A stretch of DNA of 43,687 nucleotides from Bacteroidaceae bacterium (GTDB lineage: Bacteria; Bacteroidota; Bacteroidia; Bacteroidales; Bacteroidaceae): positions 1 to 43,687 of the forward strand of contig JAGCNQ010000086.1 in assembly GCA_017645845.1 (NCBI GenBank), given 5' to 3'. Below, one piece after another: positions 278 through 37,291 of this stretch. Numbering within the stretch: the stretch's first letter is position 1; the number at the start of each line of letters is the position of its first letter. The position numbers and the translations under genes are program-made. The notes beneath the pieces are model-generated. The model saw only the letters and a program-made list of their open reading frames with translations, ran no database searches and was not told where the DNA came from.

Positions 278-287
278 CGAAAAAAAA

Positions 288-315
288 GTGAGGAGTGAAG
301 AGTGAAGGAAGAAGA
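288..315. repeat. tandem 7-mer word array (GTGAGGA GTGAAGA GTGAAGG AAGAAGA)
   Basis: Read directly from the sequence. It lies immediately upstream (gene sense) of the pgi -7 box. Confidence 0.6.
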
Positions 316-381
316 ATTTCCTGCTATATACAAAAAGCCGTCCGAAGGTCTTGGAATTGAGGCATTCGGACAGCAATATAC

Positions 382-3340: not shown

Positions 3341-3389
3341 GGTTCTTCTGTTATAATTCTGATTCGCTCTGCAGAAGCAAAAAAAACAA

Positions 3390-4388
3390 TTATCTGAACG
3401 CGTCGCTCAGGAGCTTTACCTCGATGGTGGGGTTGATGTTCTTGTAGAGGATGTTATTAACGACATCGAGGATGGGCATATTGACATGTAAGTGCTTGTT
3501 GATGTCCATCATACACTTCGTTGCGAAATACCCTTCGGCAATCATCTCCATCTCAATCTGAGCGGTCTTGACATTGTACCCCTGCCCTATCATCGTACCG
3601 AAGACACGGTTGCGGCTGAAATTGGAATAGCCAGTTACAAGCAGGTCGCCCGTATAGACGCTGTCAGTGATGTTGCGCTCGATGGGATGTACCGTGTTGA
3701 GGAAACGTTCCATCTCCTGAATTGCATTACTCATGAGGACGGCCTGGAAGTTGTCGCCGTATTTAAGTCCGTGACAGATGCCTGCTGCAATTGCATAGAC
3801 GTTCTTCAGGACGCTGGCGTACTCGATGCCTATGACATCGCTACTGGTCTTGGCCTTTACATAATCGCTGGAAATCATCTTAACAAAGGCTTTTGCCTTC
3901 TCTTGGTCGGCACAGCCAATGGTAAGATAGGTGAGACGATTGAGGGCAACCTCTTCAGCATGACTCGGTCCCCCGAGCACCGCAAGGTTCTCCTCCGGCA
4001 CATTATACATCTGGTTGAAGAAGTCAGAACAGATAAGGTTCTCGTCGGGCACAATACCCTTGATGGCAGTTACGACAAACTTGTCGCGCAGACGGACATG
4101 AAGCCGCTTAAGGTGTCCTTTCAGATAAGGAGAAGGCGTTACGAAGATGAGCGTCTGACAAGCCTCTACCACACGGTTGATATCGCTCTCGAAAGTGATG
4201 CGGTTCACATCGAAATGCACGCTGGTGAGGTAGGCGGGATTGTGACCTAGTCGCTTGAAGTCCTCGATGCGGTCATCCCTGCGAAGGTACCACCAGATGT
4301 GGTCATTCTTCTCGAGCAACATCTTGGCAATTGCCGTTGCCCAGCTGCCACCGCCCAGCACTGCTATGTTTCCTAATTCGTTGTTCAT
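3390..4388 (-). CDS. gpsA: NAD(P)H-dependent glycerol-3-phosphate dehydrogenase
   Basis: 332 aa with the N-terminal Rossmann motif [16 protein letters not shown]. Length and downstream blocks are typical of GpsA. Confidence 0.9.
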
Positions 4389-6318
4389 AATAGAGTAGCC
4401 CCTCTAAATCTCCTCGATGGGAGGCTTTTGAGTCTTTAAGGTTCTTGGCAGGTTCTTGGCCGTCCTCTCCCCTTAGGGAATCTGGAGGGGGGACCGTCCA
4501 TTTAGCAATGAGGTCTTGCGAGGGCTTTTCGACCTCGAGTTTGTATTTCTTGATGATTTCGATAATCTGCTGCTGTATCTTGGCAGGAGCAACGCCTTGC
4601 AGGGTGCTTACCAAATTATAGCCGGCCTTGCGCAGAATGGGGATTATGTCGGCAGGAACGTCTTTCTCGAGGAAGAGCTCGTCCTTGTCGCGTGGAGCCT
4701 TCACTTCGGGCTTCATCTGGGGAAAGAAAAGGACTTCCTGGATGAATGGCTTGCCGGTCATCAACATAGCCAGACGGTCGATGCCGATACCGATGCCGCT
4801 CGTTGGAGGCATACCGTATTGGAGGGCACGCAGGAAGTCGTGGTCGATTACCATTGCCTCGTCGTCGCCCTTATCGGCAAGCTTCATCTGTTCGATGAAA
4901 CGTTCTTCCTGGTCGATGGGGTCGTTCAACTCGGAATAGGCATTGGCCAGTTCCTTGCCGTTCACCATCAGTTCGAAGCGTTCGGTCAGGCCGGGCTTTG
5001 AGCGATGCATCTTCGTCAGCGGGGACATCTCAACGGGATAGTCCGTGATGAAGGTGGGCTGGATGAAGGTGCCCTCGCATGTCTCGCCGAATATCTCATC
5101 GATGAGCTTGCCCTTGCCCATCGTCTCGTCAACTTCTACGCCGCACTTCTTAGCCACCTCGCGCATCTCTTCCTCGCTCATGCCATCGAGGTCGTAGCCT
5201 GTCTTTTCCTTGATGGCATCCAGAATGGGCAGACGGCGGAAAGGAGCCTTGAATGAGATAATCTTGCCGTCAATCTCTGTCTCGGGCTTGCCATTCACAG
5301 CGACGCAAATCTCTTCGAGGAGTTGCTCTGTGAAGGACATCATCCAGTTGTAGTCCTTGTAGCTGACATACAGCTCCATGCAGGTGAACTCGGGATTGTG
5401 GTTCTTGTCCATGCCCTCGTTGCGGAAGTTCTTGCCAATCTCATATACGCCTTCGAAGCCACCCACGATGAGCCGCTTCAGATAAAGCTCGGTGGCAATA
5501 CGCATATACATCGGGATGTTCAGGGCATTGAAATGCGTGATGAAAGGACGGGCCGTTGCGCCTCCGGCAATGGCCTGGAGAGTGGGCGTCTCAACCTCTG
5601 TGTAGCCGTGACGGTCGAAGAAAGCTCGCATGGTCTTGAGGATGACAGCACGCTTCAGGAATGTATCCTTCACGCCATCATTCACGACAAGGTCTACATA
5701 ACGCTGCCGGTAACGAAGTTCAGGGTCGTCGAAAGAGTCATAGACATTTCCTTCAGCATCTGTCTTAACGATGGGCAGAGGACGAAGACTCTTGGATAGC
5801 ACGGTCAGCTCCTGAGCATGAACACTAATCTCACCTGTCTGTGTGCGGAACACATAGCCCTTGATGCCGATGAAGTCACCCAGGTCGAGCAACTTTTTGA
5901 AGACGGTATTGTAGAGGACGACTCCCTCTAAATCTCCCCGAGGGGAGACTTCCGGGCTATTTTCTCTCCCTCGGGGGAGTTGGAGGGGGGCCAGCCCATC
6001 CCTCGTCAAGTACACCTGTATTCTTCCCTTGCTGTCCTGCAACTCGGCAAAAGCAGCTTTTCCCATGATGCGTTTCGACATAATACGGCCAGCGATGCAG
6101 ACATTTCGAGAGTTCTCCGGAGTGGCTGTCTCGCGAATGTCTTTGCCTTCTTCGTCCTTGCCGACAACGGGCAGGTCAACGAAGTTTTCCTTGATTTCAG
6201 TACTGAAAGCATTGGTTGGATATTCTGCTGCGGGATAAGGGTCAATTCCCAGCTCGCGCATCTGTTGCAGGTTGTTGCGACGGATTATCTCCTGCTCGCT
6301 CAGTTCAAGTATGTTCAT
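4303..6318 (-). CDS. lysS: lysine--tRNA ligase (class II), carrying two in-frame repeat-element insertions; 3' end extended 86 nt into gpsA
   Basis: 671-aa ORF. The N-terminus [30 protein letters not shown], the class II core (FRNEGMD..., [12 protein letters not shown]) and the Bacteroidales-type C-terminal extension ([11 protein letters not shown]...KKYKL) are all present. It is about 95 aa longer than I expect for the family, which the elements at 5924-5990 and 4399-4492 explain. Confidence 0.9.
4399..4492 (-). repeat. nested-hairpin palindromic element, copy A (94 bp) at the lysS 3' end / gpsA start junction
   Basis: Plus strand: cccctctaaatctcctcgatgggagg...cctctccccttagggaatctggagggggg. 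The termini CCCCTCTAAATCTCC and GGAATCTGGAGGGGGG are imperfect inverted repeats, and each arm holds a small hairpin. In gene sense it is translated as [31 protein letters not shown]. Confidence 0.8.
5924..5990 (-). repeat. nested-hairpin palindromic element, copy B (about 67 bp) inside lysS
   Basis: Plus strand: ccctctaaatctccccgaggggagacttccgggctattttctctccctcgggggagttggagggggg. It has two CTCCCC-n-GGGGAG hairpins flanked by inverted termini. Translated in gene sense it gives [23 protein letters not shown]. Confidence 0.85.
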
Positions 6319-6365
6319 CGATATTATTTACGATTTGACGATTTAATATTTACAAATTTCGCTTG

Positions 6366-6373
6366 CAAAGGTA
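6366..6373 (-). promoter_or_regulatory. -7 promoter box (TACCTTTG on minus strand) for lysS
   Basis: caaaggta within tttcgcttgcaaaggtacgaatta, 48 nt upstream of the ATG at 6318. Confidence 0.6.
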
Positions 6374-6417
6374 CGAATTATAATTCAAAAAACATAATTA
6401 AGGAATTCAAAATTATA

Positions 6418-7308
6418 TTATTTTGAATCGGAAGGGACTGTTGGCTCTGGCAGGGTGAGCTGCATAAGCTCCTCGAGTGAGCCGTTGAAGATGTTGCAAT
6501 CGACAAAACCCTTGATGCCGGAAACTTTGCCACAGTCGGTATGTTGCCAGAAAGTCCACTTTCCCTTATATTGGAGCTCCTCTACATAGTAATGGGCTAT
6601 CCAATAGGGATAGACATTAAATTCGGGGGTGTTCAGATAGTCAACCTTAAACTTGTACCCGGTATAGAGGATTGGCTTGACACCATATTCCTTTTCGACG
6701 ATATCAAGCCAAATCTTAACGTCGCGACGCAACTGGTCCGGAGTCAGGTCACCTTTCTTCTCAATATCAAGAACTGGTGGCAAGTCACCTGGTTCCAACT
6801 GAGCAATACTCAAATAATAGTCTGCTTGCTTCCTTGGGTTAATTCCAGGAACGAAGAAATGATAAGCGCCTCGTAACAAGTCATTCCGCTTCGCATTGGC
6901 AAAGTTTCTGTTGAAGTTATCATCCAATAGCTTTTCGCCTTCAGTTGCCTTGATAAAGACGAAACTGACGGGAGCGTTTCCGATGGAGGCATTACGCAGT
7001 TTCTCCCAGTTGATACGCCCCTGATAGTGACTGATGTCGATACCTCTTACCTCATAGCCTTCAGGATAAGTCGGTTCGCCATAAATCGCTCGCCAACGGA
7101 AGCTGAAAGGAGTGACGAAGAAGTGATAGAAGAGGCCTATGTAGGCAGCTGCGATGAGTAGGCCGCCAAACCATATCAACCAGGAAGGGAAGCCACGGAA
7201 GAAATGTAAGAAAGAAAGCCCCCTCCCTGCTCCCCCTCTTGGGGAGTGCTTCTTTTTTACTCTCTTAACAGAGGAAGAGCGGGAAGCGGACTTCTTTTTC
7301 ATGTTCAA
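6418..7308 (-). CDS. GH25 family muramidase (lysozyme) with N-terminal basic tail and transmembrane anchor
   Basis: 296 aa. GIDISHYQGRINWEKL...FVFIKATEG...DDNF matches the GH25 signature. A TM helix is present (WLIWFGGLLIAAAYIGLFY). It lies 40 nt downstream of pfp and is probably co-transcribed. Confidence 0.8.
   Translation of the reverse strand: MNMKKKSASRSSSVKRVKKKHSPRGGAGRGLSFLHFFRGFPSWLIWFGGLLIAAAYIGLFYHFFVTPFSFRWRAIYGEPTYPEGYEVRGIDISHYQGRINWEKLRNASIGNAPVSFVFIKATEGEKLLDDNFNRNFANAKRNDLLRGAYHFFVPGINPRKQADYYLSIAQLEPGDLPPVLDIEKKGDLTPDQLRRDVKIWLDIVEKEYGVKPILYTGYKFKVDYLNTPEFNVYPYWIAHYYVEELQYKGKWTFWQHTDCGKVSGIKGFVDCNIFNGSLEELMQLTLPEPTVPSDSK
7219..7246 (-). repeat. solo arm of the palindromic element family, inside the GH25 N-terminal tail
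   Basis: Plus strand: ccccctccctgctccccctcttggggag (CCCCTCC + CTCCCC-ctctt-GGGGAG). In gene sense it encodes SPRGGAGRG. Confidence 0.55.
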
Positions 7309-7348
7309 ATTATAAATTTACACTCCACCAAGGGGGAGTCAGAAGGGG

Positions 7349-9040
7349 CTATGCCTGTTCCAAAGCCAATGTCTTTGTACACTGGTCACACACTTCGCTC
7401 GGTCCCCAGTACTGGATGGGACCTGGATAAACGTAGCAAGTGTTCTTGGCCCACTCTTCACGCTTGCTTGCGAAGAACTTGAAGGGTGCACCGTCAAGCT
7501 CGACGAGAGCCTTACGGATAACGGGCTTCATGGCACCATTACGGCGCTCCATGTTCATCATCATCGTGATGGGCACACCGCCTGCAATCCATTCTGAAGC
7601 AGGAGCGGTCGTGTTCTTGATGACACTCATGTAGCCGGTTTTGCCGTTGGCAATCAGGCGGCTGGCATTGTAACCGAGGCTATAGCAGTAGTCGGCATCA
7701 TAGTTGCTGGGAGCAGCGCAACGTCCTTCGTAACCGAAGAAGTGGTGCTGGGGAGCGAACTTGCCGTTGTACTTGCTTTCCTTCTTCCATGCGTCGAGCT
7801 TCATGGCAACCATGGCGCTGAGCAGCTTCTCTGTCTCGATGAGGCTGACCTGCACGTTGCCGTGGGGGTCACGGTCGAGGCAAAGCTGACGCTCTACGTC
7901 TCTCGGCAGGCTCTCGAGGACTGCAAGGTTCTCAGGAGCAATATGGCTCTTCACGAAGGCCACCTGTGCGTCCTTGCTCTCGAACTCACGGCTCTCACCC
8001 GTTGCAGGGTCTGTGAGGACTTCGTTGAGCTCTGCGATGAGCTTCTTGATGGAAGGAACGAATTCAATCAGACCTTCGGGAATGAGGACAGTACCGAAGT
8101 TGTTGCCTTCTGCGGCGCGGTCAGCCACAATCTTTGCAATGTAGGTCACAACATCGTCAAGGCTCATGGCCTTCTGCTCGACCTCCTCGCTGATGAGGCA
8201 GATATTGGGCTGTGTCTCCAGGGCACACTCCAGGGCAATGTGGCTTGCGCTACGGCCCATCAGCTTGATGAAGTGCCAGTACTTGCGGGCGCTGTTGCAG
8301 TCACGCTGGATGTTGCCAATCAACTCGCTATAAGTCTTGCAGGCAGTATCGAAGCCGAAACTGGTCTCAATCTGCTCGTTCTTCAGGTCGCCGTCGATGG
8401 TCTTGGGACAGCCAATAACCTGTACACCATAGTTCTTGGCAGCATAGTATTCGGCCAGCACACAAGCATTGGTGTTGCTGTCGTCGCCACCGATGATGAC
8501 AAGCGCCTTGATGTCGAGCTTGCGCAGAATCTCAATGCCGCTCTCGAACTGAGCTTCCTTCTCGAGCTTCGTACGGCCGGAGCCGATGATGTCGAAGCCG
8601 CCAGTGTTGCGATAATCGTCAATGAAAGCGTCTGTGAACTCAACATACTTGTGGTCAACGAGACCGCCAGGTCCCATCAGGAAGCCATAGAGCTTGCTGT
8701 TCTTGTTGAGGGACTTAACGCCGTCATAAAGGCCGCTGATGACATTGTGACCACCAGGAGCCTGACCACCGCTAAGAATGATTCCGACGTTAAGACCCTC
8801 TAAATCTCCCTTAAAGGGAGACTTATTGTTCTCCGCCCCTTTAAGGGGAGGTTGGGAGGGGTCCGCCTCAAACGTAATAACAGGCATACCGTAGGTGTTG
8901 GGGAACATAGCCTTGATTTCATCTTGATTGCCAACGCTCTGAGTGGCAGCGCCCTCCACTGCCACAACGGGACCTTGCAAGGCCTTGGGAAGTTTGGGCT
9001 GATAGGCAGCACGAGCCACCTGAAGTGCACTTTTCTTCAT
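7349..9040 (-). CDS. pfp: diphosphate--fructose-6-phosphate 1-phosphotransferase (PPi-PFK) with one in-frame repeat-element insertion
   Basis: 563 aa. GIILSGGQAPGGHNVISG, GGFDIIGSGRTK, IIGGDDSNTNA and PKTIDGDL are canonical PFK/PFP motifs. Length and the N-terminus MKKSALQVARAAYQPKLPKAL match Bacteroidales Pfp. Confidence 0.9.
   Translation of the reverse strand: MKKSALQVARAAYQPKLPKALQGPVVAVEGAATQSVGNQDEIKAMFPNTYGMPVITFEADPSQPPLKGAENNKSPFKGDLEGLNVGIILSGGQAPGGHNVISGLYDGVKSLNKNSKLYGFLMGPGGLVDHKYVEFTDAFIDDYRNTGGFDIIGSGRTKLEKEAQFESGIEILRKLDIKALVIIGGDDSNTNACVLAEYYAAKNYGVQVIGCPKTIDGDLKNEQIETSFGFDTACKTYSELIGNIQRDCNSARKYWHFIKLMGRSASHIALECALETQPNICLISEEVEQKAMSLDDVVTYIAKIVADRAAEGNNFGTVLIPEGLIEFVPSIKKLIAELNEVLTDPATGESREFESKDAQVAFVKSHIAPENLAVLESLPRDVERQLCLDRDPHGNVQVSLIETEKLLSAMVAMKLDAWKKESKYNGKFAPQHHFFGYEGRCAAPSNYDADYCYSLGYNASRLIANGKTGYMSVIKNTTAPASEWIAGGVPITMMMNMERRNGAMKPVIRKALVELDGAPFKFFASKREEWAKNTCYVYPGPIQYWGPSEVCDQCTKTLALEQA
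8796..8861 (-). repeat. nested-hairpin palindromic element, copy C (66 bp) inside pfp
   Basis: Plus strand: ccctctaaatctcccttaaagggagacttattgttctccgcccctttaaggggaggttgggaggggt. Translated in gene sense it gives DPSQPPLKGAENNKSPFKGDLEG, immediately before the conserved NVGIILSGGQAPGGHN block. Confidence 0.85.
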
Positions 9041-9084
9041 GATTCTTGAGTTTATTTATTTATAGGTTTTTAATTTTTCGCGTG

Positions 9085-9092
9085 CAAAGGTA
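9085..9092 (-). promoter_or_regulatory. -7 promoter box (TACCTTTG on minus strand) for pfp
   Basis: caaaggta within tttcgcgtgcaaaggtacgaaaaaaaaa, 45 nt upstream of the ATG at 9040. Confidence 0.6.
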
Positions 9093-9102
9093 CGAAAAAA
9101 AA

Positions 9103-9134
9103 ATGAGGGAATGAAAGAATGAGGGAATGAAAAG
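9103..9134. repeat. tandem 8-mer word array (ATGAGGGA ATGAAAGA ATGAGGGA ATGAAAAG)
   Basis: Read directly from the sequence. It abuts the A-run next to the pfp -7 box. Confidence 0.65.
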
Positions 9135-9193
9135 TGATAATTAAAATATAATTTTATTTTTATTCCCAATAACTCCTACTTGTAAAAAAGGGA

Positions 9194-9223
9194 CCCCCCT
9201 AAATCTCCCCGAGAAGGATGGGT
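9194..9223 (-). repeat. degenerate solo arm of the palindromic element family (intergenic)
   Basis: Plus strand: cccccctaaatctccccgagaaggatggg. It shares the CCCTCTAAATCTCCCCGAGG terminus with copies A-C but no matching second arm was found. Confidence 0.45.
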
Positions 9224-9241
9224 GCGCCAGAGAGACTTCCT

Positions 9242-10204
9242 TCAGACAAAGAGCACTTCACGTCCGTGAAAGAGGAAATTACCTGCCACGACGTATTCCC
9301 TGCAGGTTGGAGAAAACTGGTCTTCTACGGTGACATGTTCATGCCCTGCCAGGATGCAACGCAAAAGAGGTTCGCCATGCAGATATTGGATGAAGTCACG
9401 GGTCACAGGGTCCTCCAACTGACATTTGTAGTCACCCGTCGGCTTTGGAACCTCACGGTAGGTTAACTGCTCCTTATCGGTCCAGAAGCGTACAGCAGCC
9501 CGCCATATATTATCAGTAAAGAACGGAACGTGCATACATAATACGATGGGCAGTCCTTTGCCGACTTCCTCATGGAACAGTCTGACCTGAGCTTCTGTCA
9601 CGTAACCGTAAACATCATCGAGCGTGACGAAGTTGACGCCGTGAACTACCTGACTATTTAAGGAGATATTGAAGGGGTAAACGCTTTGAAGTCTGTTGCG
9701 CGTATTATCCTTATATGCTTCACTCTTTTCCTCCTTGGGGTCGCTAAGCCACATGTCCGTACTGAACTCGTGATTGCCCATGGAACCGATGACGCCCTCG
9801 CCAAAGTATTTCTTCACAAGGTCGAAATTTGCTTCACTCTGCCAGTCTATAAGGTCCCCTGTATGGACCACGTAGTCCACATGCTGCTTTGCCCAGGCCA
9901 GTGCATCGCGCAACGCCTCTTCCTGACGCCCTCCAAAGGTAGTGGTGCGGTTCTTGTGTAACTGCTGCTTCTTCTCGTTCTCATGGTCATAGGCTGCTGT
10001 GAGATGGGTGTCTGAGATGTGTAAGACAGAAAAGGGATGCTCCAATCCTATTTCCACCGTCGCATAGCTTAATGACAGTCGTTCGTATTTTCCCCGTTTG
10101 GGAAACAAAGCGGGATTGTCATCTGCCAGCGCTGGCAGCTTGGAGGTTGCTATGAGTATTCCCGCTCCTGCAACACGTTTAATGAATGTTCTTCTATCTG
10201 CCAT
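9242..10204 (-). CDS. metallophosphoesterase (calcineurin-like) with Tat-type signal peptide
   Basis: MADRRTFIKRVAGAGILIATSKLPALA is a twin-arginine leader. ISDTHL, GDLID, GNHE and GHEH are phosphoesterase metal-binding motifs. The start was moved from 10261 to the ATG at 10204 because the exact -7 box (10232-10239) lies inside the longer ORF. Confidence 0.75.
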   Translation of the reverse strand: MADRRTFIKRVAGAGILIATSKLPALADDNPALFPKRGKYERLSLSYATVEIGLEHPFSVLHISDTHLTAAYDHENEKKQQLHKNRTTTFGGRQEEALRDALAWAKQHVDYVVHTGDLIDWQSEANFDLVKKYFGEGVIGSMGNHEFSTDMWLSDPKEEKSEAYKDNTRNRLQSVYPFNISLNSQVVHGVNFVTLDDVYGYVTEAQVRLFHEEVGKGLPIVLCMHVPFFTDNIWRAAVRFWTDKEQLTYREVPKPTGDYKCQLEDPVTRDFIQYLHGEPLLRCILAGHEHVTVEDQFSPTCREYVVAGNFLFHGREVLFV

Positions 10205-10231
10205 GGTATCAATGTTTATCGGTTCTGCGTA

Positions 10232-10239
10232 CAAAGATA
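10232..10239 (-). promoter_or_regulatory. -7 promoter box (TATCTTTG on minus strand) for the metallophosphoesterase
   Basis: caaagata in ctgcgtacaaagatacgaataat, 28 nt upstream of the ATG at 10204. Confidence 0.55.
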
Positions 10240-10342
10240 CGAATAATAATTCACAATCCATAATACTTCGCTTCTTTTCTCAAGAATGAAGGGGCAGTTT
10301 GGACAAAAGTTTCATTTTTTTTCTAAATCATGTAGTTTTTCG

Positions 10343-10350
10343 TAACTTTG
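10343..10350 (+). promoter_or_regulatory. -7 promoter box (TAACTTTG) for the ECF sigma operon
   Basis: Exact TAnnTTTG match 39 nt upstream of the ATG at 10389. Confidence 0.55.
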
Positions 10351-10388
10351 TTGCGTCTAATGGGTGAAACGATTCGAAACAAACGACA

Positions 10389-10868
10389 ATGACAGACACA
10401 GAAAAACAATTCGCCAAGACTATTGCAGAGCACAAAAGCACTATCTACACTGTGTGCTACATGTTCTCGAAGGACGACGACGAGGTGAACGACTTGTTCC
10501 AAGAGGTGCTGATAAACCTGTGGAAAGGCTTCGAGGGCTTCGGACATCGCAGCGACATCAGAACGTGGATTTACCGCGTCGCCCTCAACACTTGTATCTC
10601 GATGGACAGAAGGAAACGGCGCACAGCTGCTGTCCGCCTGGAGATGGACATCAGCCTCTTTGAAGACCGCGACGAAGACACGCGGCAAGTCGATATGCTC
10701 CACAAACGCATATCCCGCTTGCAACCTTTCGACCGCGCCATCGTCCTGCTTTGGCTCGAAGACCTCTCTTATGAAGAGATTGGTCAAATAGTAGGCATCT
10801 CGACGAAGAACGTCAGTGTCCGTTTGTTTAGAATCCGTGAGCAACTGAAGAACATGTCAAACGATTAA
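10389..10868 (+). CDS. RNA polymerase ECF-type sigma-70 factor
   Basis: 159 aa. The region 2 block (DLFQEVLINLWKGFEGF...TWIYRVALNTCI) and the region 4 HTH (LSYEEIGQIVGISTKNVSVRLFRIREQLK) are both present. Confidence 0.85.
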   Translation: MTDTEKQFAKTIAEHKSTIYTVCYMFSKDDDEVNDLFQEVLINLWKGFEGFGHRSDIRTWIYRVALNTCISMDRRKRRTAAVRLEMDISLFEDRDEDTRQVDMLHKRISRLQPFDRAIVLLWLEDLSYEEIGQIVGISTKNVSVRLFRIREQLKNMSND

Positions 10869-10881
10869 ACCTTTGCCCATT

Positions 10882-11481
10882 ATGAATACCGAACTTGAAG
10901 AGATGCGTGAGCAGATGACCACGCTGAAGAAGAAACTTGAAAAGCAGGAGATAATTAGCGAACGCCTCATCAGCAAGACAAAGGAGTCGCTGAAAAAGGA
11001 TATGGCTACTGTGCGAAGGCAGTACAGGATGGGATACATTGTCAACTTTATTACAGTACCCTTTTTCTACTACATAATGGTTTATCGCCTTGGTCTTTCA
11101 ATGACTTTTGGAATCGGCACTGCTATATGGGCACTCGTCACCTTCGTTTTCTTTTTCTGGCGAAAAGGCCACCTGTACAATCTGCAGTCAGACAATCTGC
11201 TGGAGGCACAGCGGAAGGTGATAACCCTCAAGCAACGTTACAACAAATGGCTCAAACTCGATTATCTTTCCCTGATATGCTGGATGGCTTGGTTTGGGTG
11301 GGAAATCTATCAGAAGTGTACGATGGAGAATGCGGGGAATGTACCCGTCCGCCTCTACTTCGGCTTTGTCATCGGTTTTCTGATTGGAATTCCCATACAC
11401 ATTTGGAAGGTCGTCAAGACGCAGCGTCGCTACCAAAGAATGCTCGACCAGATAGAAGACCTCAAGGCAGAGGACCAATAG
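10882..11481 (+). CDS. membrane protein with N-terminal coiled coil, possible anti-sigma partner
   Basis: The ATG at 10882 lies 13 nt after the sigma stop; the track's 10873 start is a TTG. A charged helical N-terminus is followed by about four hydrophobic helices. No recognisable domain was seen, so the function is inferred from position only. Confidence 0.55.
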   Translation: MNTELEEMREQMTTLKKKLEKQEIISERLISKTKESLKKDMATVRRQYRMGYIVNFITVPFFYYIMVYRLGLSMTFGIGTAIWALVTFVFFFWRKGHLYNLQSDNLLEAQRKVITLKQRYNKWLKLDYLSLICWMAWFGWEIYQKCTMENAGNVPVRLYFGFVIGFLIGIPIHIWKVVKTQRRYQRMLDQIEDLKAEDQ

Positions 11482-11499
11482 GTCATCTCCTCCGTCGCA

Positions 11500-11520
11500 A
11501 GAGGGGACTTGCTCCCCTCT
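11500..11520 (+). terminator. stem-loop after the sigma/membrane operon (weak terminator candidate)
   Basis: AGAGGGGA-cttgc-TCCCCTCT has an 8-bp stem and lies 19 nt after the stop. No U-tract follows. A second palindrome, GCAATGGC-G-GCCATTGC, sits at 11529-11545. Confidence 0.35.
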
Positions 11521-11820
11521 GCGCGGTTGCAATGGCGGCCATTGCTGTAAACACCGCGTTCGCCCCAAGTGGTGGCTTATATCAACAAGACCGTTAGGCT
11601 TGAAGGTGAAAACAAATTTTATTCGAGTGTGGAGAAAAAGTTTTTAGTCCGAAGAGAAAAAAATTTTTCTCCGTGGAGCATTTTTCATTTCAGGTCGTGG
11701 GATATATGTACCAAACCTTTGTATATGTGTTCTAGGGCTTAAAACATAAGTCTCAAGCCCTGGAACAGAAAATAGTCTTAAGGGAAAAACTCCTTATCCT
11801 ACGGGGGAAAAGATTCCTTT

Positions 11821-11985
11821 TTATTCTTCCTCCCAGTCGGTGTCGTCATAGTTGTCATGGTTGCTGCGGTTGCCGCGACGGCGGCGAGCTCCAGAAGGTC
11901 CTCCGCTCATATATTCCATGAACCTGTCTTCGCCTGACAGTGTGACGACAATCGCGGACGGATATTCATATTGTTTCTTTTCCAT
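11821..11985 (-). CDS. unannotated 54-aa ORF immediately downstream of the giant surface-protein gene
   Basis: My translation is MEKKQYEYPSAIVVTLSGEDRFMEYMSGGPSGARRRRGNRSNHDNYDDTDWEEE. The ATG at 11985 is only 4 nt after the giant gene's TAG (11990-11992). It falls below the 60-aa cut-off of the ORF track. C/G-ending codons are consistent with neighbouring genes. Confidence 0.35.
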   Translation of the reverse strand: MEKKQYEYPSAIVVTLSGEDRFMEYMSGGPSGARRRRGNRSNHDNYDDTDWEEE

Positions 11986-11989
11986 ATTT

Positions 11990-14900
11990 CTATTTTTTAA
12001 TGCGTTTTACTCCATTATCAATATAAATTCCTTTCTGAGGCTTGCCTGGGAGTTTCCGGCCTGAGAGGTCGTAATATTGGTGGGTACCGTCGCCATCGAT
12101 GGTGTGGATGACGGGGTTGATGCCCGTACCGTCCTCGTTTATGTCGCCCACATACTCGTCGGGCAATTTCTCCCAATCGGGATTGACGACATCCTCGCCA
12201 GCTGGCAGGTACTTGAACTTGGTTTCATAAGCATACGGGCCTTTGTACTCCAACGGAACGAAGTAGGACCGGAATTGCGGAATGTAGCTTGCACGATGGC
12301 TCTCTGTATCATTGTTAAAGGGTTTCCACTTACCGTCCTTCGTCGAAAGCCCGAAAGCGTGCATCTGGGTGCTCTCATCGTTGTCGATGACGCGGAAGGT
12401 GCCGCGCCACCAACCTACCAGGTCGTCAGGTTCTCCCCATGTCTCGAGGCTGGAGCTGACGATACTCTCCTCAACGTGCTCGTTGGGGTGTGCCAGCATC
12501 TTCACATTATCGGCATTGAGATTGAGGCTTCCATTCTCCACTACCAGCAGACAAGGCGTGCCGGCATTGATTACGGGTGCATCACCGATGAATACAAACT
12601 CAAGGTCTTCATTAACGGCAGCCAGTTGGTACAAACGGATCTGGCCTGCATCGAACTGCTCCCACAGGTCCTTCGTGTACGGCAGACAGACGGTGAAGGC
12701 GCAGCTGGTCCATGTTCCGTCGCCATTGTCGTTGGCCGCGAACTGACGGTCGTAGGCGACGTTCACCATATGGCCTCCGTATCGGTTCAGGGTCTCGCTG
12801 TTGTCGGCGAGGTCTGTCAGGCTGACATCGGCAATACCCCACAGGAGTCCTGGGTTGTCGATGCCACCGTCAACATGGGCGTAGGAAGCGGAGTTGGTAT
12901 TGTAATCGTAGCGGGTTCCGTTCTGGCCTACAAGGGAACTTGCATGGTTGAACATGTAGGCGGAAGTCTCCACCTTGTCCATCGTCCAGCCCTCGCCCAC
13001 GGTGATGGTGGTCAGCGCATAGTCGTTCTCGAACATCATCCGGACATTGGTCACGTTGCCGGTGTCGAAGCTGGTCAGGTTCAGGTCTTTCAACGACTGG
13101 CAATTCTTGAACATTCCGTTCATGTTGGTGACTTGAGTGGTGTTGAAGTTGGACACGTCGATGTCGGCCAGGTTTCGGCATTGGAAGAACATGTACCGCA
13201 TGTTTGTTACAGACCGCGTGTCGAAACTATCGATGTTCAGTTCCTGCAGGTTGGCGCAGTTGCTGAACATGTACTCCATATTCGTAACCTGCGATGTCTG
13301 CCATCCGTATGGGTTGAGCCACTCGAGTGCGGTGCAGCCACTGAACATGTAACGCATGTCTGTGACATTGCTGGTGTCGAAGAATCCCAGGATTATCTCT
13401 TTGAGCGAAGAGCAGCTCGCGAACATGGAGACCATGGTGGTCACTTCGGATGTGCGGAGGTTATGCAGACCATCGATGTCTGTCAGGTTCCTAAAGTTGC
13501 GGAACCATCCGTAGCAGCTGGTGGGGCGAACGCGTCCGAAGCTCTCGTGGAACACCACATGCTCTACCTGGCTGTTCACCTGCTTCCATCCGGGCGAATC
13601 GGCTCCTGTCATCAGGACGTCAGCACCCTTCCATAGCATCGTCACGGCCTGTCCATCGTAGCTGTCTCCGACATTCACGCGGCTTTCGGGAACGGTGAAG
13701 TGAAGCGTCTTGGTGTCCTCGCACCAGAAGGCGTAGGCCACGTCGAAGTACCCTGTCAGGGGTTCGATGGCGTCATAGTCGGTACCATCTGTGTAGTTGA
13801 CGCAGACGCTGCTGAAGTCGTCGGTTACCTCATTGTCCATCACGAAGTAGGCCTGGAATCCGGGCAGGATGTAGCTCTCGGCACGGCTGTCGGCCACGAA
13901 GAGCTTCGCCTGGTCGCTCTCGGAGAGGGTGACGGGCATGTAGCTGCCATAGAGTGCCACGCCGTTGTAGTCAGCACTATCGGCCTTGGCGGTGGTGATG
14001 TCTATGTCTGAGAAGGTCATCTCGTCGGGAGCACCGTTGGTCCATCTGATGATGGCAGGTTTTCCGGCGGGAGCTGCCTCACTTTCATTGCAGAAGAGCG
14101 TCAGGGTGCCGTTCTCTTTCTTGGCACCGGCAAACTCCAACAGCTCGCCACTCCATTTCTCTGCCATCTGTGCGGTCATCTCGAAGGGCAGACAAAGTGC
14201 CTGCCAACCGTTAGCCGCTGTCGTGGTGCGGTTCAGTACCACCTGCTGGGCTGTAAAGTCATACAAGGGTGCGAAGCCATACCGGTCATCAAGTATCAGC
14301 TTGTTGCAGATGCCGCCCGAAACCACGTTGTCGGCAGGCTGGGCTTTGCCGGCAGGCAGATAGACGATGGCCCCTTCGTTCAGACCGAAGAAGGGCGTGT
14401 CGGGTGTGGTACGGTCTATGGTGAGGGGTTTCAGTCCCAAGCAGCGAGTCATGTCGAGTGCCGTAATCTCGTGTCCCACGCTGCTGAAGGCATTGGCATC
14501 AACAGAGCGGACAGCCAGAGGAACTTCATCGCCGTCTATGTTGACGGTAATGCTGTCGGCAACCTCAACGATGCCGCCCTCACCTGTGTAGCGGGCAAGG
14601 GTAACATCTTCAAAGTCAACAATCTTATTGTAAAGGACAGAATAGGAGGCGTACTCGTCATCTACTTCCATATACTCGGAGGGATTGTCCATGCTGATAT
14701 CCACCTCCACATCGGTCACGCCGACGCTGGTAGCCTCAAGGGTAAAGTATGCCTTCATGGCGTGTATGCAGCTGTCGGCGCCCATTGAATTGCGAATCGT
14801 CATCAGCATCTTATCGCTATTCCTTAAGTCGAGCGATGCATAGCTGGGATGGAAGGTGACATGTCCGTCGCTGCTGGTCTCCTCGACCAGTGAGTTGTCG

Positions 14901-19099: not shown

Positions 19100-19136
19100 A
19101 AAACTGATTTTATTTATATTATTTATATTTTGCTCG

Positions 19137-30980: not shown

Positions 30981-32018
30981 ATGAGTAAACTCTTGAAGCC
31001 TGCTGACTACAAGGCTTTGCTGAACTTGAATCAGACAGAGCAGGCAATTAAGAATATCAAGGACTTCTTTTTAGGCAGCCTCAGTACAGAACTGAGGTTG
31101 CGCCGTGTCACAGCCCCTCTTTTCGTGCTTCGCGGATTGGGCATTAACGACGACCTCAACGGTGTGGAGCGTCCTGTCAGCTTCCCCATCAAGGATATGA
31201 ACGATGCTGTGGCCGAGGTAGTACACTCTCTTGCAAAATGGAAGCGTGTCACGCTTGCTGAATACAAGACGCAGCCAGGCTTCGGTATTGTGACCGATAT
31301 GAACGCCATCCGAGCTGATGAGGAGTTGGACAACATCCACAGCCTCTATGTCGATCAATGGGACTGGGAACGTGTGCTCCTGGCCGAGAACCGCAACGAA
31401 GCCTATTTGCGCCGCATCGTCAGCAAGATTTACAGCGCCATCCTGCGCACAGAGTTTTACATCTGCGAGACTTATTCCCAACTCAAACCCTTCCTGCCTG
31501 AAGATATCCATTTTATCCACAGCGAGGAACTGTTGCAGATGTACCCCGACAAGACGGCAAAGGAGCGCGAACACCTCATCTGCCAGAAATACGGAGCCGT
31601 ATTTATAATAGGTATAGGTGGTAAACTCAGCAATGGGAAAGTGCATGATATGCGCGCTCCCGACTATGATGACTGGAGCACCCCGAACGAAAGCGGTTTC
31701 TATGGACTCAACGGTGACCTGCTCGTCTGGTATCCTCTGCTCAATCGCAGCATCGAACTGAGTTCTATGGGTATCCGTGTGGATAAGGAAGCACTTCTCC
31801 GACAGCTTGCTCTTCAGGGTAAGGAAGAACGCAAAGAACTATACTTCCACCAGCGTCTTCTTGGAGACACACTACCTCTGACCATCGGTGGAGGTATCGG
31901 ACAAAGCCGTCTTTGTATGGTGCTCCTGCACAAAGCACATATTGGTGAAACACAGGCCAGTATCTGGCCAAACGAGATGCGAAAAGAATGCAGAGAAGCA
32001 GGAATGCCGTTGATTTAG
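30981..32018 (+). CDS. asnA: aspartate--ammonia ligase (asparagine synthetase A)
   Basis: 345 aa. The blocks TEQAIKNIKDFF, VTAPLFV, DEELDNIHSLYVDQWDWE, GGGIGQSRLCMVLL and ASIWP are typical of AsnA. Confidence 0.9.
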   Translation: MSKLLKPADYKALLNLNQTEQAIKNIKDFFLGSLSTELRLRRVTAPLFVLRGLGINDDLNGVERPVSFPIKDMNDAVAEVVHSLAKWKRVTLAEYKTQPGFGIVTDMNAIRADEELDNIHSLYVDQWDWERVLLAENRNEAYLRRIVSKIYSAILRTEFYICETYSQLKPFLPEDIHFIHSEELLQMYPDKTAKEREHLICQKYGAVFIIGIGGKLSNGKVHDMRAPDYDDWSTPNESGFYGLNGDLLVWYPLLNRSIELSSMGIRVDKEALLRQLALQGKEERKELYFHQRLLGDTLPLTIGGGIGQSRLCMVLLHKAHIGETQASIWPNEMRKECREAGMPLI

Positions 32019-34054
32019 TTGTTTGGCGACAGTTTGCACGCAAGGGCTATAGTGCTTTTGCGAGCCTTCATAAGCAGATTTGTATCGGTATCCTTAGTGT
32101 TGCCACATTAAGTGTGGCGGCGAGAACCCCATCTGGCTCCCCCCTAGAGAGGAAGGAACATAAAGTCTCTTCTCTAAGGGGAGATTTTGAAGGGGATGGA
32201 GATATAGAAGAATCTTTGGCGGAGTTAACCGTGAGCGGCACGATGGCTCCGCTCTCGCAGTTGCAGGCAGCACGAATTGTCTGTGTGCTCACCCGTCAGG
32301 AAATAGAACAAGCGGCGGCGCAGAGTCTTAATGACATCTTGAAATTAGTTACCGGCGTGGATGTCCGGCAGCGCGGTGGCTTTGGTATTCAGACGGACAT
32401 CAGCATCGATGGCGGCACATTCGAACAGGTCACGATTCTGCTCAACGGCATCGACATCAGCAATCCCCAAATAGGACATCTTTCAGCAGACTTCCCCGTC
32501 AGCATCAGCGACATAGAACGCATTGAGGTGCTCGAAGGTGCAGCAAGTCGTGTGTATAGCGGACAGAGCTTCGGCGGGGCCATCAACATCATTACACGGC
32601 ACGACCGCGAGCAAAGCATCGAGTTTGAGGGCAGAGGCGGTTCCTTCGGTACTGCGGAGGGTGAGGCTCGCATCTCACTCACAACTAAACGTTTCAGTAA
32701 CCGCATCAGCGGAGGAGGTGGCAGAAGCGATGGCGGAACGCTCAACAGTTCCTGGCAAAAGGGACAGCTCTACTATCAGGGTGATTATGAAGATGATGCT
32801 TTGCGCCTCGACTGGCAGTTCGGTTTTTCGAAGAAGAGCTACGGGGCCAACACTTTTTACAGCGCCAACTATCCCGACCAATACGAGCGTAACCAACGCC
32901 TCATGACCAGCATCAGCGCAGAGACAAAGGGCAAATTTCACTTCACGCCTCAGGTCTTCTGGCAGCGCTCACACGATAACTTTGAGTTAGTTTGCGGCAC
33001 TTCTTTCGGTGAGAATTTCCACAGGACAGACGTTTATGGTCTCAAGGCTGGCGGATACGTCAACTGGTCTTTCGGCAAAACTGCCGTCTCTGCACTGCTT
33101 AGACACGAAGGCATCCTCAGCACCAATCTCGGCAAAGACACGCCTCCAGAAGGGAATTTGGGAGTCTATACCCGCAGCGACAACCGCACAACGGTTTCCT
33201 TTGGCCTCGAGCACAACATTCTCTTGAAGCGTTGGACGATTTCAGCCGGATTGATGGCAAGTATGACATCCAGCATCGACCATCTTTTTCGCTTCTATCC
33301 GGGCATCGATATCGCTTATCGTCCCGCATCAAACTGGAAAGTATTGCTCTCCTACAACAAAGGGTTCCGTTTGCCGTCTTTCACAGAGCTATATTATAAG
33401 AGCCCGACGCATGAAGGAAACCGAGACTTGAAACCCGAGCACAACCACTCCCTATCGCTCGGAACAGAGTACAGACGGTGTGGCATCGAGGGCAGCATCC
33501 GAGGCTTTTATCATCGTGGAACACAAATGATTGACTGGGTAATGTATTCGGCGGATGATATCTACCATACTGCGGCTTTTGACCTCGATAATGTGGGTGT
33601 TCAGGTTCATGGAAAAGTTTCACCTTCCGAGCTTCTCGGCCATGATACATGGGTATATTCTCTCTCTGCTGGCTATACCTTTATCCACCAGAACAAGCAC
33701 GATGCCGAGGGTGTCGTCAAGAGCAATGCCCAAATGGAGTATTTGCGGCACAAGTTTGTCGCAAGCCTGACGCACCGCATTATAAGCCGGCTCTTAATGA
33801 GTTGGAATTTCCGTTGGCAGGAACGGGTGGGCTGTTATCTGAGCGACGGAAAACTAGTCCCCTATCATCCTTATGCGATGCTGGATGCCAAGTTGCTATG
33901 GGAAGCAACGCGATACCAACTTTATGTCCAGGCAACCAACATCACCAATCACAGCTACTACGACCTCGCAGCAGTCCCCCAGCCCGGCATCTGGATAATG
34001 GCAGGCGCACGCCTAAAGATTTTCAAGAAATCACGAGCCACCCCATCCTTTTAA
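31988..34054 (+). CDS. TonB-dependent outer-membrane receptor with an in-frame repeat-element insertion after the signal region
   Basis: 688 aa. It has plug motifs (SLNDILKLVTGVDVRQRGGFGIQTDISIDGG, IERIEVLEGAASRVYS), beta-barrel repeats and a terminal aromatic region. The only in-frame start upstream of the conserved RKGYSAF..L.VATL leader is the ATG at 31988, which overlaps asnA by 31 nt. Confidence 0.8.
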   Translation: MQRSRNAVDLVVWRQFARKGYSAFASLHKQICIGILSVATLSVAARTPSGSPLERKEHKVSSLRGDFEGDGDIEESLAELTVSGTMAPLSQLQAARIVCVLTRQEIEQAAAQSLNDILKLVTGVDVRQRGGFGIQTDISIDGGTFEQVTILLNGIDISNPQIGHLSADFPVSISDIERIEVLEGAASRVYSGQSFGGAINIITRHDREQSIEFEGRGGSFGTAEGEARISLTTKRFSNRISGGGGRSDGGTLNSSWQKGQLYYQGDYEDDALRLDWQFGFSKKSYGANTFYSANYPDQYERNQRLMTSISAETKGKFHFTPQVFWQRSHDNFELVCGTSFGENFHRTDVYGLKAGGYVNWSFGKTAVSALLRHEGILSTNLGKDTPPEGNLGVYTRSDNRTTVSFGLEHNILLKRWTISAGLMASMTSSIDHLFRFYPGIDIAYRPASNWKVLLSYNKGFRLPSFTELYYKSPTHEGNRDLKPEHNHSLSLGTEYRRCGIEGSIRGFYHRGTQMIDWVMYSADDIYHTAAFDLDNVGVQVHGKVSPSELLGHDTWVYSLSAGYTFIHQNKHDAEGVVKSNAQMEYLRHKFVASLTHRIISRLLMSWNFRWQERVGCYLSDGKLVPYHPYAMLDAKLLWEATRYQLYVQATNITNHSYYDLAAVPQPGIWIMAGARLKIFKKSRATPSF
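32127..32195 (+). repeat. nested-hairpin palindromic element, copy F (69 bp) inside the TonB-dependent receptor gene
   Basis: Plus strand: ccccatctggctcccccctagagaggaaggaacataaagtctcttctctaaggggagattttgaagggg. It has the same architecture as copies A-C and the same orientation relative to the host gene. It is translated as PSGSPLERKEHKVSSLRGDFEG. Confidence 0.75.
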
Positions 34055-37112: not shown

Positions 37113-37165
37113 GTTTGCAGGTTCGAGGAACGGACACATGCAGACGCCCGGAACTCGCACGTGCA

Positions 37166-37205
37166 GGGTCGGGACCCCCTCCCGACCCTCCCCGAGGGGA
37201 GGAGA
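37166..37205 (+). repeat. solo 5' arm of the palindromic element family plus adjacent 9-bp hairpin (intergenic)
   Basis: GGGTCGGGA-ccccc-TCCCGACCC is followed by CTCCCCGAGGGGAGGAGAAAGG. Compare the gene-sense 5' arm of copy B: CCCCCCTCCAACTCCCCCGAGGGAGAGAAAA. Confidence 0.55.
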
Positions 37206-37291
37206 AAGGTCTCTTAAAACCTTGACCTTTTCCGCGACTATTGCTCAGCGGACCAAATCTATCTCCTCGGCGGAGAAGTTGAAACTGGACA

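Follow-up and report, generated by a model that had tools for sequence, protein, structure and literature searches.

The pfp gene of this locus (7349..9040, minus strand) encodes an intact diphosphate--fructose-6-phosphate 1-phosphotransferase of 563 aa, of the rumen Prevotella type, and carries a palindrome within its coding sequence, which raises the question of whether the pairing of that palindrome is maintained for the sake of the gene or of something that the gene merely hosts. The identity of the enzyme in the analysed stretch of DNA (43,687 nt, hereafter the window) was confirmed by a match to TIGR02477 (832.9 bits) and by sequence alignment with structure 1KZH (E = 1e-185).

The palindromic element in pfp and its Pfp loop

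The initial annotation had placed a palindromic element inside the PPi-phosphofructokinase gene, and such an element, copy C, was indeed found at 8794..8863 of the plus strand (~70 nt), with its top strand (GACCCTCTAAATCTCCCTTAAAGGGAGACTTATTGTTCTCCGCCCCTTTAAGGGGAGGTTGGGAGGGGTC) antisense to pfp. It has the architecture of an imperfect long hairpin, composed of a 5′ arm (GACCCTCTAAATCTCCC), the core TTAAA/TTTAA and a 3′ arm (GGGGAGGTTGGGAGGGGTC), and the top strand folded into one long hairpin of −34.2 kcal/mol. A covariance model, R1, which was built only from Mucilaginibacter copies, matched copy C on the plus strand with 36.6 bits (E = 7e-8), compared with 33.0 bits on the minus strand. Read from the bottom strand in the "GDLEG" frame, pfp codons 60-82 (8795..8863, minus strand) encode DPSQPPLKGAENNKSPFKGDLEG, followed in the pfp translation by L-NVGIILSGGQAPGGHNV, and copy C stands immediately N-terminal of NVGIILSGGQAPGGHN. 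The size given earlier, exactly 66 bp or 22 codons, has to be corrected, as the quoted peptide comprises 23 residues and 69 nt.

Metagenome contigs break at the repeat, which could suggest that copy C is a chimera joined there during assembly, or else a palindrome arisen by chance in a variable loop. Exact contigs from four independent public runs spanned both junctions, indicating that copy C is not an assembly artefact. Together with the intact frame, the E-value of the R1 match and the frequency of the 5′ arm motif in the window (8 occurrences against 0.42 expected, above all shuffles), this leaves chance or chimerism with hardly any credibility.

Comparison with Pfp orthologues, as proposed along with the initial annotation, revealed that the insert is secondary. 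Among 120 orthologues, 107 are of 548 aa and have a 10-aa loop (VITFE-AGEQKPLEPF-NVG) without the insert, which is also missing from the pfp of the conspecific contig L001 (97-99% identical to the window over 19 kb) and from the conspecific protein P0002, which is 98% identical to the window Pfp. The insert is therefore not a feature of all Prevotellaceae Pfp proteins, and its lack in most orthologues favours insertion. It was not a clean insertion, though: although the peptide has 23 aa, the gene is longer by a net 15 codons only than most orthologues, which means that the peptide took the place of about 8 native loop residues. In L001, an unrelated 41-nt loop allele corresponds to window positions 8794-8867 (74 nt), and the net gain relative to this element-free allele is 11 codons.

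The Pfp loop proved to be hypervariable (10-14 aa, unrelated sequences), and a microsatellite-like allele occurs in the same species. The loop contains other copies of the element in two further proteins, P0003 and P0024, the copy of P0003 lying in the opposite orientation with the frame still kept; element-derived peptides are thus found at this position in three lineages. No clean empty site was found among the three pfp cases, native loop residues being partly replaced in each, and no target-site duplication was seen at the pfp junctions. The structural mapping is based on the 1KZH sequence alignment only, since an AlphaFold2 model of Pfp (pLDDT 46.6) was too poor for loop placement owing to a shallow alignment. 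The metatranscriptome contigs searched did not cover the window pfp allele.

Copies in the window and the repeat family

At least 5-7 copies or fragments of the element are present in the window. Copy B (5920..5991, plus strand; R1 35.7 bits, E = 1e-7) is located inside lysS (4303..6318, minus strand), of which it encodes 23 residues, and has the CGAG core that had been read from it earlier. Copy A (4397..4494, plus strand), at the 3′ end of lysS, is longer and degenerate and was only weakly matched by R1 (14.4 bits). Both lysS copies are common to the window and L001; in L001, copy A supplies the lysS stop codon, and through a 1-nt difference in the window copy, the open reading frame continues there for ~60 extra codons, in the GDLEG frame, into the start of gpsA. 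Copy E, whose top strand is the minus strand (32125..32197; R1 25.9 bits, E = 8e-5), lies in a TonB-dependent receptor gene (31988..34054, plus strand) and encodes ...SGSPLERKEHKVSSLRGDFEGD; it was present in every conspecific contig fetched, among which no empty site was found. A probable degenerate copy, G (7217..7292, plus strand; R1 19.4 bits, E = 0.005), encodes ...KKKHSPRGGAGRGLSF at the N-terminus of a GH25 muramidase gene (6418..7308, minus strand). Two intergenic fragments complete the set, namely D (9191..9228, plus strand; R1 11.3 bits), upstream of pfp, which retains the 5′ arm only (CCCCCCTAAATCTCCCCGAGAAGGA), and F (37150..37210, minus strand; R1 12.4 bits), which retains the 3′ half only (GAGACCTT...CCCCTCGGGGAGGGTCGGGAGGGGGTC).

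The window copies belong to a large family of interspersed repeats, whose members number in the hundreds and are spread over many phyla. A pattern scan of genomes yielded at least 120 loci in Bacteroidota, Chloroflexota, Patescibacteria, Synergistota and others, and copies were identified in the cultivable strain Xylanibacter brevis ATCC 19188, which makes experiments feasible. The elements are ~65-110 nt long and follow the consensus (G/A)(A/C)CCCCTCTAAATCTCCCC, core, GGGGAGACTT, spacer, CCCTCCC, complementary core, GGGAGGGTT(T)GGGAGGGG(T/C)(C/T), with inverted ends (AGCCCC...GGGGCT and GACCCC...GGGGTC). Over the element, metagenome depth increased from ~20-100 to 1300-4200, a 20- to 100-fold rise. 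No consistent direct repeats indicative of target-site duplication were detected in 40 aligned flanks, which are merely AT-rich, and all-against-all clustering of the neighbouring ORFs disclosed no recurrent transposase. A search of Rfam returned no family at the gathering score, and one spurious miRNA match (E = 0.27) at the E-value threshold. When plasmid and phage collections were searched by blastn with a consensus copy, nothing matched, for which the low-complexity filter is possibly responsible, and a scan of viral contigs gave 3 matches only. No description of the family was found in the searchable literature, by exact sequence or by topic, and Bacteroidota do not feature in a 2024 review of prokaryotic MITEs.

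Pairing, orientation and reading frame

The complementary changes in the stems that the initial annotation had pointed out are real and statistically supported. In a covariation test of 150 model-aligned copies against 500 shuffles and slid controls, 90.4% of cells were paired (79.6 +/- 0.3 in shuffles), 28 of 31 pairs had changed on both sides (18.3 +/- 2.0), and the covariation score was 0.350 (0.180 in shuffles, 0.056-0.076 in slid controls); for none of these three measures did any of the 500 shuffles reach the observed value. An alignment-free pairing test agreed (z = -12.3). The covarying positions join the variable core of the 5′ arm to that of the 3′ arm, for example CCCCCGG[T/G/C/A]AGGGG with TCCCT[A/C/G/T]CCGGGGA, and four T·G wobble positions are near-invariant (82-88 of 95 copies). 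The paired unit is therefore one long hairpin or cruciform and not the two local stem-loops described previously, in which the covarying bases would be unconstrained loop bases. RNAalifold applied to a plain MAFFT alignment had reported two local hairpins only, because the 3′ arms were misaligned, and was replaced by the model-based alignment.

The gene context of the copies is strongly biased. In rumen Prevotellaceae, 21 of the 27 sampled copies, about three quarters, lie inside genes; each of these 21 runs antisense to its host gene and is read in the "...GDLEG" frame; the four clear intragenic copies of the window are likewise antisense without exception (4/4). Of 31 copies, 29 have an open GDLE frame, and the mean hydropathy (GRAVY) of this frame is -1.07. 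The host genes, which include pfp, lysS (twice) and genes for the TonB receptor, GH25 and restriction-modification enzymes, are mutually unrelated, as are the insertion positions. In other phyla, unlike in Prevotellaceae, the element DNA abounds in intergenic regions, and the intergenic copies in Sphingobacteriia also favour the antisense orientation (24 vs 4), implying that selection on the peptide alone is not a sufficient explanation. The bias might alternatively stem from the replication strand rather than from transcription. Gene direction and GC skew in the window both switch near 19-20 kb, between the plus- and minus-oriented copies, and in the window and the locus L083 opposite copy orientations track local gene direction within a few kb.

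The strong covariation and conserved wobble pairs, the orientation bias relative to transcription even in intergenic copies and the conservation of the arms across phyla would all be expected of a structured RNA or DNA module that serves the host, for instance in mRNA stability, processing, local translation speed or transcription, and on which host selection has produced the covariation. Such a module is unlikely, as the copies sit at unrelated positions of unrelated genes, many being fragmentary or degenerate, and resemble no Rfam family; moreover, the pfp copy is missing from a conspecific strain and most orthologues. The strand present in transcripts is also the less stable one: the top strand folded with −41.2 kcal/mol and its complement with −39.0 kcal/mol, and the top strand was more stable in 92 copies and less stable in 43 (p = 6e-9). 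Accordingly, the covariation, which had been taken as a sign of selection on structure here, describes a constraint on the repeat family, and the pairing is best read as reflecting what the element needs for its propagation and not a structure selected in pfp.

A benefit residing in the peptide was also considered. A flexible loop or an interaction motif (ending in R/K-G-D-L-E-G) that had been recruited repeatedly as an adaptation of Pfp and other hosts would account for the three lineages with element peptides in the same Pfp loop, for the single frame of the intragenic Prevotellaceae copies and for a hydrophilic, linker-like composition. We regard this as improbable, because the loop accepts unrelated sequences anyway, the host proteins have no function in common and the same DNA abounds between genes elsewhere; an RGD-type adhesion role is implausible for Pfp hosts, which are cytoplasmic.

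We therefore consider copy C to be, probably, a tolerated insertion of a selfish repeat resembling the Rickettsia palindromic elements (RPEs) instead of a functional structure specific to pfp. According to this proposal, a non-autonomous, hairpin-forming interspersed repeat of ~65-110 nt would have inserted into the hypervariable linker ahead of the first beta-strand and the phosphate-binding loop of Pfp, replacing part of that linker, and the ribosome would read straight through. The copy would have survived because it keeps the frame, contains no stop codon and adds a hydrophilic, Gly-, Pro-, Ser- and Glu-rich peptide where changes of length and sequence are tolerated; the insert is presumably neutral for Pfp. 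The complementarity of the arms would persist because propagation is limited to copies able to form a single-stranded hairpin or cruciform, and not through any need of pfp for structure.

Link to DUF559 genes and comparison with known systems

DUF559 is a very large family of uncharacterised endonucleases. At the loci ascertained by the element (~0.95 Mb), all seven DUF559 domains (Pfam E = 1e-28 to 1e-34) adjoin element arms. A second sample of 53 loci was ascertained by DUF559, using a single-protein query, and not by the element. Here, an inverted repeat of at least 20 nt brackets the ORF in 30/53 loci, arm motifs occur at most 300 nt from the DUF559 ORF in 44/53 loci compared with 14/134 control windows, and covariance-model matches flank the ORF in 22/53; the linkage was seen in several phyla. 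The catalytic motif of the element-adjacent proteins is E-x-D-G-x-x-H, not EDxHD. Neither the window nor the conspecific loci fetched contain a DUF559 gene, and the arms flanking DUF559 genes in the rumen are mostly of the symmetric GACCCCACCCCC subtype, not of the CTCTAAATCTCC subtype. The DUF559 gene is located beyond the outer ends of the element instead of within its loop, so the short repeats did not simply arise by internal deletion from a DUF559 transposon.

DUF559 has been placed together with the T/G-mismatch nickase Vsr and the homing endonuclease I-Bth0305I (PMC3424549). The position of the genes suggests that the DUF559 protein (Vsr / PD-(D/E)XK type) is likely the enzyme that recognises, mobilises or targets the repeats, and the conserved T·G wobble pairs may be the feature recognised. 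More tentatively, the repeats and the DUF559 genes they bracket could form a previously unrecognised mobile system, in which a Vsr-like endonuclease would recognise T·G in the extruded hairpin or cruciform, copy itself and its short palindromic partners, move between phyla (for example inside Type ISP restriction-modification genes) and have colonised rumen Prevotellaceae coding sequences in one orientation and frame; we offer this as a possibility on which we would not yet rely. The positional link provides a testable function for this large endonuclease family and may also explain why DUF559 genes are found among predicted invertible loci, DUF559 proteins being enriched among genes flanked by invertible repeats (PMC9881135). 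For annotation, the inserts call for caution, in that they add to the length of proteins, give rise to apparent C-terminal extensions, as in lysS, and break metagenome assemblies.

Several known systems share features with the element. The GC-clusters and "byp" palindromic elements of yeast mitochondria are GC-rich mobile hairpins that invade coding sequence, and in this they resemble the present repeat. Byps are skipped by the ribosome, whereas the element described here is in frame, free of stop codons and presumably translated, and its hosts are bacterial. DUF559 proteins are not known to act on palindromic repeats. The element-adjacent genes are bona fide DUF559 members, and conserved T·G mismatches are present in the folded element, which fits the Vsr / DUF559 / EDxHD clade with its T/G-mismatch nickase and homing endonuclease (PMC3424549, PMC9403480); the DUF559 genes here lie outside introns and inteins and are linked to the element by position only.

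Elements of the MITE, REP and BIME type (Correia, ERIC, BOX, QMITE1, REPINs) are likewise non-autonomous and high-copy, with terminal inverted symmetry, hairpin or cruciform potential and occasional in-frame gene fusions. With MITEs the element shares terminal inversion, small size and the lack of its own coding capacity, whereas target-site duplication is absent; its arms bracket DUF559 endonuclease genes, while no transposase family of the kind expected of MITE parents recurs nearby. Its arms also differ by fixed transitions, unlike simple terminal inverted repeats, and the family spans phyla. REPs and REPINs were rejected, since the element has no GTAG/CGTC head, is longer than 20-40 nt and is mostly intragenic in Prevotellaceae, and no RAYT (REP-associated transposase) or IS partner was found among the neighbouring ORFs.

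The element and the RPEs (Ogata et al. 2000, as summarised in PMC10969869) are alike in several respects. Each is a small, palindromic and interspersed repeat that occurs in frame in unrelated housekeeping genes as well as between genes, and each is translated, in the present case presumably, into an extra surface peptide compatible with protein function. The present element differs in its hosts (Bacteroidota, Chloroflexota, Patescibacteria and others, not Rickettsia), its length (~65-110 nt against ~100-150 bp), its richness in C/G runs with conserved T·G wobble pairs, its strict antisense orientation and single frame in Prevotellaceae, and its link to DUF559 genes. Membership of the Rickettsia families proper (RPE-1 to RPE-10) was rejected on the grounds of hosts and length. 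In functional class, the element is an RPE-like in-frame palindromic repeat, being present in many copies, keeping the frame in unrelated genes and constituting a secondary insert. The invasion of essential genes by selfish DNA, of which the Rickettsia palindromic elements were the first case described, is thus not peculiar to Rickettsia, and in rumen Prevotellaceae the main glycolytic kinase and lysyl-tRNA synthetase are among its hosts.

An element-bearing allele of pfp

The pfp gene (7349..9040, minus strand) encodes a complete PPi-dependent phosphofructokinase of 563 aa (TIGR02477, 832.9 bits), and its product matched the Borrelia Pfp (PDB 1KZH) with E = 1e-185. Copy C of the hairpin-forming repeat was located inside this gene at 8794-8863 on the plus strand (DNA GACCCTCTAAATCTCCCTTAAAGGGAGACTTATTGTTCTCCGCCCCTTTAAGGGGAGGTTGGGAGGGGTC); codons 60-82 of pfp read DPSQPPLKGAENNKSPFKGDLEG, immediately followed by L-NVGIILSGGQAPGGHNV. 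The initial annotation had proposed an exact 66-bp insertion of 22 codons at 8796-8861, each end of which proved to be 1-2 nt short, and the peptide counted 23 residues (69 nt). Among the best 120 Pfp homologues (88-96% identical), 107 were 548 aa long with the loop VITFE-AGEQKPLEPF-NVGIILSGG or a same-length variant. The lengths of 563 and 548 aa therefore imply that the 23 element-derived residues replace about 8 native ones, and the event was not a clean insertion. No target-site duplication was found in the element flanks or at the pfp junctions, where native codons were lost instead. Both junctions were crossed by window-identical contigs in several independent public runs, which showed that this allele is real.

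A metagenome scaffold of the same species (L001), 96.7-98.7% identical to window positions 1-19040, carried 41 unrelated nt (L001 10174-10214) against the 74 nt at window 8794-8867. Since L001 differs exactly there, the Pfp loop is hypervariable even among members of one species, with the element as one allele. The unusual loop of L001 (KEQTTDNGQQTAPF) is encoded by DNA rich in CAGACAA-like short tandem repeats, so slippage also contributes to the evolution of this loop. The same loop contained different copies of the element family in two further lineages, represented by the Pfp homologues P0003 (ETLSGSPLKGEKQEASPLRGGLEGS) and P0024 (PSDPSQGGGEKDACPSGNGLEGS). These copies differ, and that in P0003 is reversed with the frame still kept, so at least two independent events occurred at this site.

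The motif TTTCGCGTGCAAAGGTACGAA was observed at 261-293, 6357-6389, 9076-9108, 10223-10255 and 30610-30642, a short distance 5′ of minus-strand start codons, with pfp and lysS among the genes concerned; its gene-strand sequence includes TACCTTTGCA, in agreement with the Bacteroidota -7 promoter consensus TAnnTTTG. Three A-rich repeat blocks with 8-nt periodicity (AAAATTAAAAAATT...), each ending ...GAAGCCTTTTCACTCTTT, lie at 19454-19512, 19799-19857 and 20384-20461 within a 1.3-kb gap where gene direction turns from minus to plus, and may represent curved DNA or a promoter region. LRR_5 and DUF285 domains in the conspecific counterpart of a 2388-aa ORF (11990-19156, minus strand) suggest a BspA-like surface protein.

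Architecture and pairing of the element

From 5′ to 3′, the consensus comprises an outer 5′ arm CCCCTCTAAATCTCCCC, a variable core, GGGGAGACTT, a variable spacer, CCCTCCC, the core's reverse complement and GGGAGGGTT(T)GGGAGGGG. The cores vary among lineages and match within each copy, as in CGGTA/TACCG, CGGGA/TCCCG, CGCTTCGCAA/TTGCGAAGCG, TTCTACGAA/TTCGTAGAA and, in the pfp copy, TTAAA/TTTAA. In an alignment-free test, 69 distinct 5′ cores paired with their own 3′ arms at -21.2 kcal/mol vs -18.0 with the arms of other copies (z = -12.3; none of 2000 permutations as extreme). In 150 model-aligned matches, an alignment fitted to the structure and hence leaning towards it, 90.4% of cells were paired vs 79.6 ± 0.3 in shuffles, both sides had changed in 28 of 31 pairs vs 18.3 ± 2.0, and the covariation score was 0.350 vs 0.180 (0.056-0.076 in slid controls); none of 500 shuffles attained any of these values. 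The 95 top-strand rows alone gave 92.7% canonical pairs and 255 double-change cells vs 62.5 ± 6.4 in shuffles. The compensatory changes noticed in the initial annotation were thus borne out by three tests; they link one arm with the other in a single long hairpin. Two independent small stem-loops, as first drawn, lack support because the covarying bases would there be unconstrained loop bases.

The arms are more than plain inverted copies of each other, as they differ by fixed transitions (5′ arm CCCCCTCTAAATCTCCCC vs 3′ arm reverse complement CCCCTCCCAAACCCTCCCC). Four T·G wobble pairs are thereby present on the top strand in 82-88 of 95 copies, a count in which the T bases were set by the search pattern and the partner G bases were free, and the complementary strand has C·A mismatches at the same four positions. 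The top strand folded at -41.2 kcal/mol vs -39.0 for its complement, being more stable in 92 copies and less stable in 43 (p = 6e-9). The 3′ arm (GGGGAGGGTTTGGGAGGGG) and the 5′ arm (CCCCCTCTAAATCTCCCCC) of the consensus are each mirror repeats, the former with four G-runs, which makes it conceivable that a G-quadruplex or triplex forms; the G-runs of the Prevotella copies in the window are weaker.

Spread, orientation and neighbouring genes

The 5′ arm motif occurred 8 times in the window vs 0.42 expected. A covariance model built solely from 16 Mucilaginibacter copies was run on the window and recovered copy C (36.6 bits, E = 7e-8), copy B inside lysS (5920-5991, 35.7 bits), copy E inside a TonB-dependent receptor gene (32125-32197 within 31988-34054, plus strand; 25.9 bits) and a probable degenerate copy G (7217-7292, 19.4 bits, E = 0.005) in a GH25 gene (6418..7308, minus strand). 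Copy A lies at the lysS 3′ end (4397-4494), and D and F are half-copies. The diverged copy E, encoding SGSPLERKEHKVSSLRGDFEGD between the signal region and the plug of a receptor with Plug and beta-barrel domains, was fixed in every conspecific contig fetched, and the GH25 muramidase N-terminus (…KKKHSPRGGAGRGLSF…) resembles a decayed copy (G). Copy A covers the lysS stop codon, in a region (4303-4494) comprising the lysS 3′ end and the gpsA start (4388). LysS of L001 has 611 aa and ends ...AKWTAPL* with the stop codon within the element. In the window, a 1-nt C-run difference shifts the frame into a GDLEG-frame read-through of the element, yielding a LysS of 671 aa that runs about 60 codons beyond it and overlaps the gpsA start; the extra C-terminal stretch is either genuine or the product of a homopolymer sequencing error.

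Across the element's first 40 nt, k-mer depth in rumen metagenomes rose from about 20-100 to 1300-4200, and contigs break at this point. Scanning one genome per species with the pattern CCCTCTAAATCTCC-N40-70-GGAGGGG yielded at least 120 loci. The matches listed included Mucilaginibacter and other Sphingobacteriaceae, Prolixibacteraceae, and rumen Prevotellaceae and Bacteroidaceae (the latter two groups with cultured Xylanibacter brevis ATCC 19188 among them), together with Anaerolineae and other Chloroflexota, Patescibacteria, Synergistaceae, Binatia and others.

Long open frames contained 43 of 142 copies; 21 of 27 copies were intragenic in rumen Prevotellaceae and related Bacteroidales, and 5 of 52 in Sphingobacteriia. 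In all 21 rumen intragenic copies, the top strand ran antisense to the host gene, which read the copy in the frame ending ...GDLE(G); two sense frames were also open through most of them. The four clear intragenic window copies, on both DNA strands, all followed this rule. An open GDLE frame was present in 29 of 31 rumen copies, and the encoded peptides were hydrophilic and Gly/Pro/Ser/Glu-rich (mean GRAVY -1.07). Selection on the peptide is not the whole explanation, because intergenic Sphingobacteriia copies between co-directional genes were mostly antisense too (24 vs 4); transcription-linked or replication-linked effects, inseparable within the window, are possible sources of the bias. Owing to the sequence of the arm, the intragenic peptides end R/K-G-D-(L/F)-E-G (e.g., 5923-5940, 4400-4416 and 32180-32196). 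Given that Pfp and LysRS are cytoplasmic proteins, the RGD or KGD tripeptide is probably a by-product of the element DNA.

Clustering of neighbouring ORFs yielded no recurrent transposase near the copies. It revealed an approximately 110-aa domain common to several phyla, DUF559 (PF04480, Pfam E = 1e-28 to 1e-34), and all seven such domains in the element-ascertained loci, which total about 0.95 Mb, adjoined element arms. The DUF559 ORF directly follows the ...GGGGAGG(G)TC top-strand end in loci of Prolixibacteraceae (L006) and Anaerolineales (L077), and lies between inverted G-rich arms in a Prevotella locus (L067). In L053 (1870-2540) and L071 (3770-4280), the order [element][DUF559][second 3′ arm] is in frame within the Type ISP restriction-modification C-terminal specificity domain (PF18135), and L093 (about 4500-6400) has two such cassettes within one 1666-aa ORF. 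These last three loci belong to MAGs of other phyla, and their cassettes recall homing-endonuclease insertion without an intein. A further, independent set of 68 metagenome loci was chosen through the DUF559 protein and not through the element; the element model matched beside the ORF in 22 of these. In 30 of 53 loci with enough flank, the ORF was bracketed by an inverted repeat of 20 nt or more. Arm motifs were present within 300 nt in 44 of the 53, vs 14 of 134 control windows; the rumen unit reads ...CTCCCCTCCCTTCAAGGGGAGGGGCTGGGGGTGGGGTCTGTAAC-[DUF559]-GTTACAGACCCCACCCCCAACCCCTCCCCTTGAAGGGAGGGG....

DUF559 has been grouped with the T/G-mismatch nickase Vsr and the homing endonuclease I-Bth0305I (PMC3424549, PMC9403480, PMC12907096), and genes flanked by predicted invertible repeats are enriched in DUF559 proteins (PMC9881135). 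We infer that the DUF559 nuclease, a candidate partner enzyme, recognises the folded, T·G-containing element. No DUF559 gene was present within the window. In DUF559-bearing loci this gene lies outside the outer ends of the element, so simple deletion from it does not account for the short repeats.

A probable selfish palindrome in a variable loop

The best-supported reading of copy C is a selfish palindromic repeat, tolerated as an in-frame insertion in a loop free to vary in length and sequence. On this reading, the structure would be kept for the element's own propagation and not for host use. A host-level RNA function of the element or an adaptive role of the inserted peptide is possible but less likely, because members of one species differ in whether they have the pfp insert, copies occupy unrelated hosts and many have decayed, and the strand carried by transcripts is the weaker-folding one.

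No matching family was found in Rfam, and no description of the family was found in the searchable literature by exact sequence and topic; it is apparently a new family within a known type of element. Tolerated in-frame insertion has been described for Rickettsia palindromic elements (PMC10969869), which copy C resembles. The cross-phylum spread, the single orientation and frame kept strictly in Prevotellaceae, and the linkage to DUF559 genes go beyond known examples, and raise the more novel possibility that the repeats and the DUF559 genes they bracket form an unrecognised mobile system.
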